Positions 3,076-35,129 of a DNA stretch of 64,000 bases are shown here, one piece after another; the stretch's first letter is position 1, and the number at the start of each line of letters is the position of its first letter. The stretch comes from an uncultured Chloroflexia bacterium (GTDB taxonomy: Bacteria > Chloroflexota > Limnocylindria > Limnocylindrales > CSP1-4): NCBI GenBank assembly GCA_963746845.1, contig CAVVCZ010000005.1, positions 384,001 through 448,000 on the forward strand, given 5' to 3'. A model generated the notes under the pieces. It did not search any database, was not told the DNA's origin, and saw nothing but the letters and a program-made list of their open reading frames with translations. The translations under genes and the position numbers were made by a program.

Positions 3076-3152
3076 CCGCCCGTAGCTCAGTGGATCAGAG
3101 CGACTGACTTCGGATCAGTAGGTCGGGGGTTCGAATCCCTCCGGGCGGGCCA
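3076..3152 (+). tRNA. tRNA-Arg, anticodon UCG
   Basis: Cloverleaf: CCGCCCG/CGGGCGG acceptor, GCTC/GAGC D stem, ACTGA-CT(TCG)GA-TCAGT anticodon arm, GGGGG-TTCGAAT-CCCTC T arm, G73, encoded CCA; A20 Arg identity base; TATCAT -10 at 3061. Confidence 0.95.
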
Positions 3153-3249
3153 CTGCCTCAGGCGCGTGCGCTCGACCGTCCGAGCGTGAGAGGCGGGACC
3201 GAGGGGGAAGGTGCCGGCCGTGAGGCGGGCACGGAGGGGTGACTAGCCG

Positions 3250-3856
3250 GTGATCCTGCGCGTCGTCAAGGGCCGGATTCCCGTCGGACAGCTCGAGGCG
3301 GTGCGCCGCGACCTCGAGCGCCACTATGTCCCGGCAGCCGACGCGTGCGCGGGTCTCGAGCGCTACGTCGTCGCGATCCGGCCGTCCGCGGACGGCCACG
3401 ACATCGCGCTCGTGACCGTGTGGACCGACGTCGAATTCGGCGCTCACCGCCTACGCGGGGGATCTCGCCAGATCCGGCACGCTCGACGGGAAGGGCCACG
3501 GCGAGATCCTCGACCACGTCGACTACTACGAGGTCGATGTCGGCGAGGCTCGGCGGCGACCCGGGACGCCCCGGTTCCTGCGCCTGTCGGCCGGGTCGGT
3601 CGGGCGGGGCCTCGACGCGGACATCCAGCGCGATCTGCGCGAGCGGCTCGCCGAGCTCGGGCCGGAGGCGGTCGACGCCTACGTCGGTCGCCGGGTGAAA
3701 GGTGCCCAGGTCGAGATCGCGTTCGTGTCGGCGTGGTCCGGGCCGCCGGCCGGCGCCTCGCTCGAGGTGCCGATCTGGCCACACCTGTCGGGGTACTTCG
3801 ACACGTTCGGGATCCATGTCCACGACGTGATCCTGCACGGAACGCCACGTCCCTGA
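3250..3856 (+). pseudogene. Tandem ABM/dimeric alpha-beta barrel-like protein, frameshifted at ~3436 (pseudogene or sequencing error)
   Basis: Frame reads MILRVVKGR...LVTVWTDVE, then coding-like sequence continues in the +1 frame (SALTAYAGDL...EIAFVSAWS...) to TGA 3854-3856. Confidence 0.7.
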
Positions 3857-3968
3857 AAGCCGAACGCCGGCCGGACATGACCGGCTGTCGCGAGCCCGCG
3901 GGTACCTTCGGCGAACGGGCGTCGAACTGACGCTGTTCAGCCGGCGAGCGCCCGCGGAGGAATCCCCG

Positions 3969-4568
3969 ATGCCGACCACCGCCCGCCGTTCCTCGAACGG
4001 CAAACACGCCCGCGTCTCGCCCGAGCCGCGGCTCGGCCAGCGAGCGGCCGAGCTGCAGGCCTTCGGCGCACTTCGCCAGCTGCCGATCGCCCTGTCCGCC
4101 GAGGCGCGCGGCGAGAGCTGCCAGCTCCTCAACGCGATCCTCGCGGACACGTCCGTCCTGTCTGCGCTCTACAAGAAGTCGCACTGGAACGTGGCCGGCC
4201 CGACCTTCTACCAGCTGCATCTCCTGTTCGACAAGCACGCGGAGGAGCAGCTGGAGCTCGTCGACATGCTTGCGGAGCGGGTCCAGATGCTCGGCGGGAT
4301 CTCCGTCGGCGATCCACGGCACGCGGCGGAGCTGACCACGATCCCGCGGCCCCCCGACGGCGCCGAGGAGGTGCCGGTGGTCCTGGATCGCCTGCTCGAC
4401 GCCCATGAGGTGATCATCGAGAAGGTCCGGGCGGCGATCGACGCCACCGAGGAGTCGGAGGACTGGGGCACGAACGACCTCCTGATGGGCGACGTCCTGC
4501 GCCGTCACGAGATGGAGGTCTGGTTCCTCTCGGAGCACGTCGTCGACATCCCGCTCGTCGAGGCCTGA
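3969..4568 (+). CDS. dps: Dps family DNA starvation/stationary phase protection protein
   Basis: HWNVAGPTFYQLHLLFD and D-MLAER ferroxidase motifs; GGAGG RBS. Confidence 0.95.
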   Translation: MPTTARRSSNGKHARVSPEPRLGQRAAELQAFGALRQLPIALSAEARGESCQLLNAILADTSVLSALYKKSHWNVAGPTFYQLHLLFDKHAEEQLELVDMLAERVQMLGGISVGDPRHAAELTTIPRPPDGAEEVPVVLDRLLDAHEVIIEKVRAAIDATEESEDWGTNDLLMGDVLRRHEMEVWFLSEHVVDIPLVEA

Positions 4569-4607
4569 CCCGCGGGCCGAGCCGCGCCGCCTGCTACGCT
4601 CGGCGGC

Positions 4608-32132: not shown

Positions 32133-32448
32133 GGTCGCCATTCTAGAGGCCGGTCTCCCGCCCGGATCGCGGCGTCCCGTGTGGCTCGGCGCGTCGACGC
32201 ACCACCCATCCGTCGGGCCCCCATTGGTCCCCATCCTGCGTGATCGGAACGCGGCACGGAAGGTTCGCGGACCATCGAGGCCGGAGGCCATGGCTCGCAA
32301 CGCGAAATCGATCAGACGGTGTTCGTCGCGCATGGGCGTCGCTGGCAGGGCGCCGGGGAGCAGCGGAGCGAGCGGGCTTCAAGGCCCGTGAGCGAGCAGC
32401 GCAGCCGGCAATGCAGTCCAGCGTGGTCCAGGCGCGACAGCCGGAGGT

Positions 32449-34053
32449 TCAGGCCCGCGCCCGAGCGGCCAGATATGCGGTCAGCACGTCCTCGTCGACA
32501 TCGCTCGACCAGCCGCCCTGCGCGGCCTCGTCCTTGACCGGCTCGCCGAGCGTCATCTTGTGCAGCCAGCCCTGGCGGCCGTCCGGGCAGAGGACCAGCC
32601 AGTACGCGCCGGACTTCTCGAGCAGCTGGACCTCGTCCCCCTGGTCGAGCTGGCCGATGTCGATCCCGCGGAGCTCATCGGGTGCGTCGAGCAGCCGGAC
32701 GACGCGGTAGCGGATGATCCGGCGCTCGCGACCGTCGACGGCGTCGACCGAGCCGTGGTCGAAGCTCATCCGCGCCGACTCCACGTACCGGGTCGGGTCG
32801 GACTTCCGGGCGGCCTGGACGGACGGGCGGCGCCAGCGGGGCATCCCCGCCTCGACGTCGACGGGCGGAGGAACCGCAGCCGCGACCGCACCAACGACAT
32901 CGCCTCCCGGCACGGCGGCGTGTCCGCGAGCGGCGTGCGCCTGGAGCACCTCGTCCGGAGCCGGCGCCTCCTCGTCGCGACGCTTCTTGCCGAAGATCGC
33001 GAATGCGAAGGCCATCGTGGTCGCGGTGGTCGTCCCGACCAGCATCGGCAGCCCCGTGGTCGTGGTCGACGGGCGGACGCCGAGGATGTCGAGGGCAGCG
33101 GTCAGCGCACCCCATCCGACGCCGCCCTCGGTCAGACCGGAGCCGCGGGAGCCGCCGGGTTCGGCGCCCGGGTCCCCGCCGGTGGGCCCATCGGGCGGCA
33201 CGACGACGCCCGCACCGGTCGCGTCGAGACCGGGGTCGGCGCTCGCGCCGGGCTCCGCGCCGGGCGACGAGCCGGGGCCGTCAAGGGATCCATCGAAACC
33301 ACCGCTCGCGCCGCCGCCCGAGGGCCCGCCGAGGCCACCGGGTCCGGTCACGCCTGCCGCAGGAACAATCGTGGGGAGTCCGTCGGATCCCGGATCGGAG
33401 GCGCCGGGATCCGACGGCGCGGGCGTGTCGGCCGGGTCACTCGTCGGACGGGCGGTCGGACCAGGCGTCTGCGTGGGGTCGGGCGTGGGCGTCGGAGCCG
33501 ATCGTGGCGTGGGATCGGGCTGAGGGGTCGGGTCCGGCCTCGGCGTCGGGTCCGGCCTCGGCGTGGGCGTGGGATCCGGGGTCGGGGTCGGCTTCGGCGT
33601 CGGCGTCGGGTCGGGCGTCGGGGTCGGGGTGGGGCTCGATCCGTTGATCACGACGTTGCCCGCATCGAGCGTGTCCGTCGATCCGTCCGCGGCCTCGGAC
33701 GCGAACTGCACTGCGTGGGTCCCGGCCGGAAGCTTGCCGAGCCAGTAGAGCGTGCCGCCGTTGTGCCAGCTGTTGTCGGGGCTGGTCATCTCGTGCGGGG
33801 CTCCGTCGATCACGACCTTGACGTGCGCCGGGGCCGACCCGTCCCCGCTGCGGAAGCGGACGTCGAAGTGGATCGTCGTCGTCGGCGTCCCGACCCGCGG
33901 CCAGACGTGGCCGTGGCTGAGGTCCTCATCGGCGGCCGCGAGGGCCGGCGCGACGTTCGCCAGGATGACCAGGAACACGGCCGTCAACACCGCCAGGGGA
34001 GCGGTCGCCAATCGCCGGATCCGGGTTCGACGCTCGATCAACAAGAAAGACAT
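32449..34053 (-). CDS. Membrane protein: signal peptide, Ig-like domain, PT-rich linker, TM, C-terminal SH3-like domain
   Basis: Hydrophobic N-terminus ending ALA; PTP(D/K/R)PT repeats; [34 protein letters not shown]. Start uncertain (ATG 34053 or nearby TTG). Confidence 0.8.
33470..33635 (-). repeat. Coding Pro-Thr tandem repeats
   Basis: GG(C/G)GTCGG units encoding PTPTPDPTP... Confidence 0.8.
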
Positions 34054-34301
34054 GCCTCCGCGCGGGGCAGGGGCGCCCGTGCTGAGGTGACCTTGGCTGC
34101 GGATCGAGGCGGTCGCAATGGTACGGGTTTCCCACTCACGCCCCCGCGTGGGGAGGGATCGCTCGACGCCCGGTGCCAGCCGACACCAACGATCCCGAGC
34201 TTCGTGCTCCGCCGCGGAACGGCGCATGGGTCGGACGGCGCACGGTCCTGACCCGAAGTGGCCATACCCAAGGCGGGGTCGCGCGCGCGACGATCGCGCG
34301 G

Positions 34302-35051
34302 ATGCAACTCGTCTCGGCTTCCCGCTCGCTCCGGCCTCCGGTCGGGGCCGCCCTCGCCGGCCTCCTCGTCGGCGGCGTGCTCCTCTCCGGCGGGCTCGTC
34401 CTCGCCTGGCTCGCCTTCCTCACCCCGATGATCAGCGTGCTGACCCCGGCCGCGCTCCGGCCGACGGTCCCGCAGATGGCGATGGGCGGGCTCGTCTGGG
34501 GCGTCGCCCTCGTCGCGCCGCCAGCGTTCGCGTTCGCAGGGGCGTGGCGTCTCAGCCGGGTCCTGCGGGCCCTGACCGCCCGACCCGCCGAACGCCTGCT
34601 CTCGAGGGCCGCCACCCAGCTGGGGGACGACTACGTGGCGATCAGCGACGTGACCCTGCCGGAGGGCCGGGTCGTCCACGACCTGGTCCTGGGCCCGTTC
34701 GGGCTCGCGGTGTTCGGCGACGTGCCGCCCGCGCGCTACGTCCGCCGGACCGGCGGGAGCTGGGAGATCCGGGGACACGGTGGCAAGTGGGTCCACATGG
34801 AGAACCCGCTCGAGCGGGTCGCCCGCGACGCCGAGCGCGTCCGGCGCTGGTTCGCCGGCACCGAGCGGGATTACGTGCTGAAGGTGTTCTCCGCCCTCGT
34901 GACGAACGACCAGACCGTCAGCCGGACGCCGAACTGCGCCGTCGTGACCATGGACGAGATCCCCGCCTGGCTGTCATCCCTGCCGCCATCCCGGCAGATG
35001 ACCCCGGAGCGGCGCGAGGAGATCCTGGAGCGGATCCGGCCGCTGCTCTGA
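34302..35051 (+). CDS. Membrane-anchored NERD-like (PD-(D/E)xK fold) protein
   Basis: Two N-terminal TMs then [11 protein letters not shown]..., [18 protein letters not shown] pattern typical of NERD domains. Confidence 0.7.
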
Positions 35052-35053
35052 GC

Positions 35054-35129
35054 TGGTAGGGGAGCCAGGACTCGAACCTGGAACCAGCGGGATATAAGCC
35101 CGCCGCTCTGACCATTGAGCTACTCCCCC
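35054..35129 (-). tRNA. tRNA with anticodon UAU (putative tRNA-Ile for AUA)
   Basis: Minus strand GGGGGAG TA GCTC AATGGTCA GAGC G GCGGG CT(TAT)AT CCCGC TGGTT CCAGG TTCGAGT CCTGG CTCCCCT A CCA; all stems pair; TAGCAT -10 upstream. Confidence 0.93.

Follow-up and report, generated by a model that had tools for sequence, protein, structure and literature searches.

Can AUA be read without lysidine, and the CGN arginine box without inosine, in a free-living bacterium whose genome has not been reduced? The question is raised by a stretch of 64,000 nucleotides (hereafter the window, meaning this whole stretch of DNA; G000:C5:384001-448000, where G000 is the window's own genome), in which ARAGORN finds exactly two tRNA genes, tRNA-Arg(UCG) and tRNA-Ile(UAU), both regular cloverleaves with an encoded CCA. 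The corresponding wobble-modifying enzymes, TadA and TilS, are treated as near-universal and essential in bacteria, and the exceptions that we know of are host-associated, mostly reduced lineages. An initial annotation of the window described both tRNAs as intact, which the ARAGORN calls bear out, and proposed that their anticodons allow decoding independent of both enzymes. We find that the gene and tRNA contents, their distribution among relatives and a site of tilS deletion support this proposal, and we consider it likely that the window's order decodes AUA and CGN without lysidine and without inosine.

The G000 assembly comprises 3.56 Mb in 12 contigs, with 71% GC and a completeness of 92.4%. 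Judging from the names of the closest public records, it falls in the class Limnocylindria of the Chloroflexota. Relatives are grouped into the window's family (f1, genomes of 2-4 Mb), a genome-reduced sister family of the same order (f2, ~1.1 Mb) and the other families of the class (f3-f5). According to an extract of PMC13212565, the Limnocylindria hold four families, namely P2-11E, QHBO01 and CSP1-4, with genomes of 2.4-3.2 Mb and ~68% GC, and the Limnocylindraceae, which are reduced (1.3 Mb) and the sister of CSP1-4. We therefore infer that f1 is CSP1-4, f2 the Limnocylindraceae, and f3 and f4 the remaining two families. The words 'tRNA' and 'tilS' have no occurrence in that paper. The class sample used for tilS comprises 201 genomes, each at least 85% complete. 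Ten genomes are flagged as unpublished (G010, G094, G114, G131, G155, G195, G207, G349, G466 and G469) and enter with one count each; G010 accounts for one TAT locus out of 29 and G114 for one of the 29 matches to the ACG pattern in f3, both given below, and no claim depends on flagged genomes alone.

AUA decoding and the tilS locus

No tilS gene was found in G000, where the best match to TIGR02432 (the TilS N-domain) scores 20.2 bits against a cut-off of 93.6. This match was rejected, the 589-aa open reading frame (ORF) concerned having been read by eye as GMP synthase. No match above the cut-off occurs in 41 relatives, many of them only 58-90% complete, or in the 82 f1 and f2 genomes of the class sample, as against 109 of the 118 genomes from f3-f5. 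The Ile tRNAs of G000 carry the anticodons GAU and UAU, and ARAGORN finds only two CAU tRNAs on all contigs. One shows a C1·A72 mismatch and three G-C pairs in the anticodon stem, which we take to be hallmarks of an initiator tRNA, while the other is an elongator tRNA-Met, 97-98% identical to the tRNA-Met that adjoins tilS in f4. A third CAU tRNA, the Ile2(CAU), was not found in the 92.4% complete assembly.

The distribution of tRNA-Ile(UAU) mirrors that of tilS. A pattern for this tRNA matches 68/79 f1 and 6/7 f2 genomes (74/86 in the order), and none of the 74 genomes from f3 (0/21), f4 (0/52) and f5 (0/1). ARAGORN reads a TAT anticodon in 29/29 fetched loci, within the same genus 23 of 24 genomes carry the tRNA with an identity of 96% or more, and across genera both strands of its anticodon stem change together. 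This recurrence in f1 and f2, with covarying stems, is therefore more than chance.

The place from which tilS was lost can be recognized. In f4, the gene order is tRNA-Met(CAU), tilS (a PP-loop match of 160 bits) and ftsH. In G000, the orthologous tRNA-Met is followed after ~106 bp by an ftsH that is 78-82% identical to that of f4, and tilS is missing in between. Downstream of ftsH, and before the next conserved gene, G000 has a gene for an M20-family peptidase, which is missing in the f4 genome G049.

A further CAU tRNA in the f4 genome G069 is likely the Ile2(CAU). It carries C4 and C5 in the acceptor stem, which are TilS identity elements in E. coli, and its 19-nt D-arm is the same as that of tRNA-Ile(UAU), with 75% identity overall between the two.

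Across a phylum sample, tilS is found in 187 of 201 genomes, and 10 of the 14 misses belong to the window's order. The others are G350, both f35 genomes (G388 and G412, 98-99% complete) and the single f56 genome (G501). G350 has two CAU tRNAs and no UAU, and is thus probably an assembly gap. In contrast, G388, G412 and G501 each carry a tRNA with a CU-UAU-AA anticodon loop. Since f35 (2/2) and f56 (1/1) are both without tilS and with a UAU loop, the swap seems recurrent in Chloroflexota.

We considered whether the two window tRNAs were acquired horizontally, on a mobile element or phage, their co-occurrence being a coincidence. Auxiliary tRNAs with rare anticodons are often mobile, and the tRNA-Ile(UAU) locus is syntenic neither between f1 and f2 nor with the Ile2(CAU) locus of f4. 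Both tRNAs are nevertheless vertically distributed over at least 20 genera, and in G016, a genome of the same genus as G000, they lie 36 kb apart in a stretch collinear with the window, where the spacing is 32 kb. The base composition of the window is flat (69-74% GC), and a Pfam scan of 10 ORFs near the tRNAs detected no integrase or transposase domain, which agrees with the absence of mobile context claimed in the initial annotation. We therefore regard transfer as extremely improbable, the least probable of the alternatives considered here, and return to replacement within the order.

Replacement of Ile2(CAU) by tRNA-Ile(UAU) places the burden of charging on the isoleucyl-tRNA synthetase (IleRS). 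The G000 enzyme, of 1109 aa, matches 8c8w at 597 bits and 1ile at 539 bits, with eukaryotic cytoplasmic enzymes coming next, whereas the type-1 enzyme of S. aureus (1ffy) reaches 192 bits. Its C-terminus matches DUF5915 (residues 918-1101), and no IleRS zinc-finger family is among its five Pfam hits. By these sequence criteria it is a type-2 (eukaryote-like) IleRS with an ARD3-type C-terminus. An orthologue is present in 61/61 genomes of the class, including the tilS-containing families, and type-2 IleRS thus predates the loss of tilS. An extract of PMC13752280 assigns Q961, R964, K965 and L969 to the wobble pocket of PmIleRS2, and these residues align with Q1033, R1036, K1037 and L1041 of G000. 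In yeast IleRS, the Arg equivalent to that of the pocket bonds the carbonyl group of G, I, U or pseudouridine at position 34, and does not bond C (PMC11685878, in extract). The pocket Arg may therefore provide a plausible basis for charging of tRNA-Ile(UAU) by the G000 enzyme.

Comparison with IleRS sequences of the class, picked by similarity and with L235 left out, reveals two further features of f1 and f2. An insertion of ~47 residues after the WMDW motif (residues ~147-192) is present in 11/11 f1/f2 sequences and in 0/9 from f3-f5; judging from the alignment offset, it is also missing in PmIleRS2. We note that this insertion is far in sequence from the anticodon-binding domains. The residue equivalent to L969 is aliphatic in 11/11 f1/f2 sequences, and Tyr or Phe in 9/9 from f3-f5. 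Thirteen positions are invariant in f1 and f2 and never shared with f3-f5, none of them in the wobble pocket. Identity to the G000 enzyme is 52-57% for f4 and 45-48% for f3 and f5, suggesting that f4 is the nearer relative of f1 and f2.

The initial annotation had pointed to enzymes that modify U34, Elp3-like or MnmEG, and these were not found. MnmG has no match in G000, MnmE only matches to its GTPase domain, and Elp3 is found in 0/51 genomes of the class; MnmA is present.

AUA is rare in G000. It accounts for 28 of 496,719 codons (about 0.06 per 1000) in 1350 ORFs with high GC at third codon positions, a filter that favours GC-ending codons, and at this frequency the swap would be nearly neutral. 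In the same ORFs, CGA makes up 6.3% of the Arg codons. The meaning of both codons was read from 126 orthologue pairs (mean identity 84.8%) between contig C5 and a collinear 400 kb of G016. AUA is aligned with Ile in 7 of a small set of nine cases, with Val in one, Lys in one and Met in none, similarly to AUC (Ile in 82% of 5057) and AUU (Ile in 72% of 82). Arg stands opposite 84% of 756 CGA codons and 90% of 3397 CGC codons. In addition, one AUA of an f1 IleRS aligns with Ile in 19/19 sequences. These alignments show the code to be unchanged, with AUA meaning Ile and CGA meaning Arg.

An unassigned or reassigned AUA, with the UAU tRNA a relic or the carrier of an amino acid other than Ile, would also be in keeping with the rarity of the codon. 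The f2 samples, too small to weigh much, are mixed in a way that could fit such a change (Ile 2, Met 1 and Thr 1 at f2 loci, and one AUA of an f2 IleRS aligned with Thr). The alignments in f1 argue against it, as does the retention of the tRNA, with covarying stems, in 74/86 genomes of the order. Charging with Met is opposed by the requirement of methionyl-tRNA synthetase for C34 (extracts of PMC12514573 and PMC11685878). We consider a changed meaning of AUA very unlikely, and retain Ile as its assignment.

The CGN box and the Glu-less TadA homologue

ARAGORN returns 60 calls on all contigs of G000, none with an anticodon beginning with A. Three over-long 'Arg' calls, without CCA and with poor stems, were set aside as false positives. 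The remaining Arg anticodons are CCG, CCU, UCU, GCG and UCG. The claim that Arg(UCG) makes TadA dispensable needs a correction. The UCG tRNA is insufficient by itself as a replacement for I34, and the other half of the arrangement is an Arg(GCG) outside the window. Such a G34/U34 layout of the CGN box is used by archaea and by some Mollicutes.

The pattern for Arg(ACG) matches 0/115 f1, 0/13 f2, 0/110 f4 and 0/1 f5 genomes, and none in G000, compared to 29/61 in f3. A pattern with position 34 left as N, applied to 25 genomes each (counted as rows), gives GCG in 20/25 f1 and 24/25 f4 genomes, UCG in 22/25 and 17/25, and CCG in 18/25 and 22/25, with ACG in none; the single f2 genome in this search has GCG, UCG and CCG. 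The tRNA-Arg(UCG) of the window is recovered by the pattern as well. Intact tilS with Ile2(CAU), and intact tadA with Arg(ACG), which the initial annotation held to speak against its proposal, were thus not found in the window's order (tilS 0/82, ACG 0/128, plus G000 for each). These tallies also agree with its description of a lineage-wide strategy in a high-GC, non-reduced bacterium. As a positive control across the phylum, the ACG pattern matched only 9/201 genomes. It is therefore too strict outside the class, and we draw no phylum-wide conclusion on Arg(ACG) or TadA.

One f3 genome stands apart from its genus. G044 (genus g27, 97% complete) has Arg(GCG) and Arg(UCG) next to each other and shows no more than a weak deaminase match (E 3.4e-12), whereas Arg(ACG) and a TadA of the Glu type are present in its genus mates. 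Here TadA seems to have been lost completely, recently and independently.

G000 retains one homologue of TadA, the only match among four candidates. This protein aligns with NF008113 (E 1e-34, positions 8-145 of 165) at 119.7 bits, below the curated cut-off of 150; this cut-off is weak evidence alone, given that only 6 of 12 control genomes with a match reach it. Its alignment with E. coli TadA is full-length, TadA structures match it with E values down to 8e-28, and its model (pLDDT 82.7) superimposes on TadA structures with a TM score of 0.85 (1wwr). The zinc ligands H51, C81 and C84 are invariant in 15/15 aligned sequences, with the PCxxC motif kept. However, the PTAHAE motif of the enzyme reads PTAHAV, placing Val at the position of the catalytic Glu. 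The co-absence of tilS and tadA that the initial annotation took as support is therefore only half observed: tilS is not found, but a tadA homologue is present with its catalytic Glu replaced, and a table of presence and absence would wrongly score the genome as TadA-positive.

The replacement is a property of two families. In f1, 37 of 38 copies read HAV and one HAI, and 7/7 best f4 copies read HAV (44 Val and 1 Ile among the 45 copies of both families), whereas 21/21 copies from f3 and f5 read HAE. The homologue is present in 39/44 f1 genomes (at least 37 of the HAV type) and 48/49 f4 genomes, and in 0/5 f2 genomes. Taken together with the ACG tallies, the occurrence of Glu coincides exactly with that of Arg(ACG). 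A tree was built from 145 sequences, two short ones having been dropped; all 48 sequences without Glu fall into a single clade (support 1.0) that has no Glu-containing member. Its stem is the longest internal branch (0.552, median 0.066), and its sister is a Glu-containing TadA of Chloroflexota. The ratio of nonsynonymous to synonymous substitution rates within genera is 0.05-0.12, which indicates purifying selection, and Val is encoded by GTG in 23 and GTC in 21 cases. The gene lies directly upstream of tRNA-Ser(CGA)-tRNA-Ser(GGA) in 8/8 f1/f4 loci checked.

Public records place the Glu-less form in its context. Glu is present in 77 of 80 loci from other public records, the three closest ones being without it. 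The best 150 representatives out of 1.84 billion proteins include 49 with Val and 88 with Glu, and identity to the query is mostly 48-94% for the former; the closest named records are 'Candidatus Limnocylindrales bacterium' (76%), 'uncultured Chloroflexia bacterium' (70%) and 'Chloroflexota bacterium'. JGI/IMG names a Glu-less protein of 79% identity 'tRNA(adenine34) deaminase', and homology-based tables of modification enzymes will consequently miscount. The public proteins P0004 and P0083 are Glu-less homologues under this JGI/IMG name. P0075 (Val) and P0083 (Ile) each share only 42% identity with the query, and may be further cases of a TadA without Glu, separate from those of the family. 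Separately, the f4 genome G088 carries, besides its Val copy (119.8 bits), a canonical Glu-type TadA (L039, 184.5 bits). No other match in the class sample exceeds the curated cut-off; this one contains one TAG, lies ~0.9 kb from tRNA-Ser(CGA), and could reflect contamination or horizontal transfer.

Is the HAV protein still a deaminase? It may have kept activity through another proton shuttle and acquired a new substrate, whether another tRNA position, mRNA, a nucleoside or a base. All 15 aligned sequences share the zinc ligands, the GAAG loop and the DPTAHA and EPCxMCxGA blocks, the TadA fold is confident, purifying selection is strong, and guanine and guanosine deaminases are near relatives (68.6 and ~62.6 bits). 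On the other hand, the Glu of the H(C)xE motif is the proton shuttle of this deaminase fold, and no invariant acidic residue near the site compensates for its loss. A position that is Asn in all five printed HAE copies from f3 and f5 varies by eye among D, N, E, A, R and G in the HAV copies, which suggests a relaxed pocket for the old substrate. The C-terminal FFxxRR helix end holds the anticodon loop in TadA with its aromatic and basic residues; by eye, FF...R is kept in 4/5 printed HAE copies and in 0/14 HAV copies.

A known relative points the same way. ADAT3 (Tad3), the inactive subunit of the ADAT2/ADAT3 deaminase, also combines a TadA-derived fold and kept zinc ligands with Val at the catalytic position, and ADAT3 chains match the query at 48-49 bits with a TM score of 0.78. 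In contrast to the protein studied here, ADAT3 has an extra N-terminal domain and forms a heterodimer with catalytic ADAT2; the bacterial protein is ~146 aa long, and G000 has no second TadA-like gene and no A34 tRNA. We thus consider continued deamination unlikely, and read the HAV protein as probably catalytically inactive.

What would then maintain the gene under selection? Tentatively, the HAV protein could be a bacterial pseudo-deaminase with an essential, deamination-independent role, gained after the substrate mutated from ACG to GCG, although we hold this specific version to be doubtful. By analogy with ADAT3, it might for instance serve as an RNA-binding module for tRNA-Arg(GCG) or for the tRNA-Ser genes that follow. 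If true, this would be the first case of a wobble-editing enzyme put to new use in bacteria instead of disappearing, and would offer a natural intermediate toward non-catalytic subunits. More generally, the keeping of a pseudo-TadA may hint at a second role of the TadA fold that has gone unrecognised.

Could the missing genes instead lie in the unassembled 8% of G000? An artefact of assembly or binning would place tilS, Ile2(CAU) and Arg(ACG) there, the window tRNAs being extra isoacceptors. Neither G000 nor many of its relatives are complete, the patterns miss existing genes, as f3 reveals, and G350, without a tilS match yet with two CAU and no UAU tRNAs, demonstrates that such misses occur. 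Under the same sampling, however, tilS is found in the sister families and in none of the f1 and f2 genomes, and the ACG pattern totals 0/238 in f1, f2 and f4 against the 29/61 of f3. Moreover, the ancestral tilS site is assembled in G000, and the TadA homologue is independently without its catalytic Glu. We regard an artefact as highly improbable, somewhat more so than a changed meaning of AUA, and a genuine rewiring of both boxes as the likely explanation.

We propose that this rewiring proceeded in three steps. In the ancestor of f4, f1 and f2, Arg(ACG) would have been replaced by Arg(GCG), which would read CGU and CGC, with Arg(UCG) covering CGA (and CGG) and Arg(CCG) reading CGG. The deaminase would thereby have lost its substrate and then its Glu, f1 and f4 keeping the gene as a Val pseudo-deaminase with a new, selected function. 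In the ancestor of f1 and f2, the tRNA-Met-tilS-ftsH cluster would have lost tilS, Ile2(CAU) would have disappeared and tRNA-Ile(UAU) would have taken over AUA. This step may have been helped by the rarity of AUA and by the type-2 IleRS already found throughout the class, whose pocket Arg would hydrogen-bond the 4-carbonyl of U34 and exclude C34. Finally, the Val protein would have been lost from f2 in the course of genome reduction.

Several points weigh against this reading, and we gather them here. The evidence is genomic throughout, and charging of tRNA-Ile(UAU) by the type-2 IleRS, the state of its U34 and the avoidance of AUG misreading are predictions. The pocket Gln, Arg and Lys are identical in the tilS-containing relatives, with no visible specialisation, and in yeast the UAU transcript without modification falls 40-fold short of the modified tRNA (PMC11685878, in extract). 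The tRNA-Ile(UAU) locus shares no flanking genes with the Ile2(CAU) locus of f4 or with the tRNA-Ile(UAU) loci of f2, and synteny lends no support to a descent of UAU from Ile2(CAU). AUA codons are few, both in the G016 comparison and in f2. All genomes are of metagenome-assembled grade, in which tRNAs are frequently unassembled, and the tRNA calls combine ARAGORN with strict IUPAC patterns that miss real genes: beyond the f3 tally for ACG, none of the Arg patterns found a match in 3/6 f3 genomes. That the HAV protein is inactive is suggested by one residue and a shortened C-terminus, and its invariant blocks make other chemistry conceivable. A soil metatranscriptome contig matches a window tRNA exactly, with flanks that differ from those of the window, and may represent DNA carry-over.

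Relation to known systems

Mycoplasma mobile is a reduced, low-GC parasite, in contrast to the free-living lineage of G000 with its 3.56 Mb and 71% GC. Like G000, it is without tilS, has a TAT tRNA-Ile replacing Ile2(CAU) and keeps AUA as Ile (PMC3575796, in extract). The same extract describes a type-1 IleRS in M. mobile, in which the wobble-stacking Trp is changed to Arg, whereas G000 has a type-2 enzyme with an ARD3 pocket. In addition, unmodified U34 and ribosomal rejection of AUG were shown in M. mobile, whereas the window's order is known from genes alone. Closest in mechanism are the tilS-less Bifidobacterium and Neorickettsia, which combine a tRNA-Ile(TAT) with a eukaryote-type IleRS (PMC3575796, in extract). 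They belong to other phyla, and the window's order differs from them in that its type-2 IleRS is common to tilS-containing sisters and did not arrive with the loss; it also has the ~47-residue insertion and the aliphatic L969-equivalent.

The extract of PMC3575796 counted nine tilS-less species with tRNA-Ile(UAU), in three clades, in 2013, and such bacteria were still termed rare cases in 2026 (PMC13752280, in extract). Similarly, a survey found TilS in 98.18% of 1093 bacteria and, in the part of it considered here, called the enzyme evolutionarily stable (PMC6063277), whereas here the whole order, f35 (2/2) and f56 (1/1) are without tilS. For TadA, the pattern of the order is the same as in that survey, where bacteria that lost TadA have also lost its target tRNA and gained Arg tRNAs that are not targets (PMC6063277, in extract). 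The string 'Chloroflex' has no occurrence in the main text of the survey.

In the Mollicutes, too, Arg(ACG) is replaced by Arg(GCG) and Arg(UCG), and CGN is read without inosine (PMC3711424, in extract). The model proposed there, with a weakening of deaminase activity ahead of gene loss, agrees with the Glu-to-Val form described here. However, according to the same extract, the Mollicutes lost both tadA and Arg(CCG) in the course of genome reduction, whereas in the window's family Arg(CCG) is kept, the genome is unreduced and the descendant of tadA is under selection.

Among the papers listed in literature searches, none was relevant by title or abstract to tilS in Chloroflexi or Chloroflexota, or to a bacterial TadA with Glu changed to Val, which is not proof of absence. 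Each kind of rewiring is already known. What appears to be new is the combination of both in a non-reduced, free-living lineage, with a retained pseudo-TadA, such that both dependencies would be gone in a large high-GC lineage of soil and freshwater bacteria. The families form a graded series: f3 has both enzymes, f4 only TilS, f1 neither while keeping the Glu-less TadA, and f2 neither, with no TadA-like gene. This series makes the order of the rewiring steps testable.

Features of the window and other loci

The promoter-like site of tRNA-Ile(UAU) stops 6 nt before the gene and is the only one found, compared to a mean of 0.0 in 50 shuffles. The reverse complement of its TAGCAT hexamer is present in the upstream loose ends of relatives' contigs. 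For tRNA-Arg(UCG), the promoter scan found no full promoter, and a TATCAT hexamer ~10 nt upstream was recognized by eye only. The claim that each tRNA has its own -10 element holds for Ile(UAU) as a consensus match, and for Arg(UCG) only in the form of this hexamer. Among the 10 scanned ORFs flanking the tRNAs, Pfam matches include ferritin-like, thiamine pyrophosphate (TPP)-enzyme and class-V aminotransferase domains, and five ORFs have no match. Coverage of the stretch in sequencing runs amounts to small shares (at most 0.19), and parts that are not covered count neither for nor against.

The two trans-editing factors described between the tRNAs in the initial annotation are indeed present, as a YbaK-like and an AlaX-like ORF. 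The link from these factors to decoding, which was called speculative there, found no support; nothing connects them to the tRNAs. G000 has five YbaK-type domains (the window copy, C5:349317, C7:124609, C2:70725 and C6:82966), some of which may be prolyl-tRNA synthetase editing domains or free-standing factors. The AlaX-like ORF is one of three tRNA_SAD matches in the genome.

Table 1. Positions of the features discussed; plain numbers count from the first letter of the window, and all others give genome and contig.
Feature	Position	Strand	Description
tRNA-Arg(UCG)	3076-3152	+	77 nt, CCA encoded, anticodon loop C-U-UCG-G-A; ARAGORN
YbaK-like trans-editing ORF	24852-25706	-	stop-to-stop frame; PF04073 tRNA_edit 83.9 bits, domain ~24921-25277
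AlaX-like ORF	27422-28789	-	stop-to-stop frame; tRNA_SAD PF07973 36.7 bits, tRNA-synt_2c PF01411 (class II alanyl-tRNA synthetase core fragment) 34.9 bits
tRNA-Ile(UAU)	35054-35129	-	76 nt, CCA encoded, loop C32 U33 U34 A35 U36 A37 U38, discriminator A73; ARAGORN
Promoter-like site of tRNA-Ile(UAU)	35164-35136	-	CTGACA, 17 nt, TAGCAT; consensus match only
tRNA-Met at the former tilS site	G000:C4:516880-516954		followed by ftsH
M20-family peptidase gene	G000:C4:519080-520597	+	
IleRS	G000:C4:888711-892037	-	1109 aa
TadA-like gene	G000:C4:1261385-1261807	-	profile match 119.7 bits, ~146 aa
tRNA-Arg(GCG)	G000:C4:1267126-1267201		outside the window
tRNA-SeC(UCA) and four-base ccgg call, listed together	G000:C6:460121-460219 and G000:C5:346543-346631	- and +	ARAGORN
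Arg(GCG) and Arg(UCG), adjacent (L111)	G044:C26:58185-58351		f3, genus g27
Glu-type TadA (L039)	G088:C60:1472-1915		f4, 184.5 bits

Two further ARAGORN calls in G000 deserve mention. The one with a four-base anticodon (ccgg) is odd and probably a false positive, and the tRNA-SeC(UCA) suggests the use of selenocysteine.

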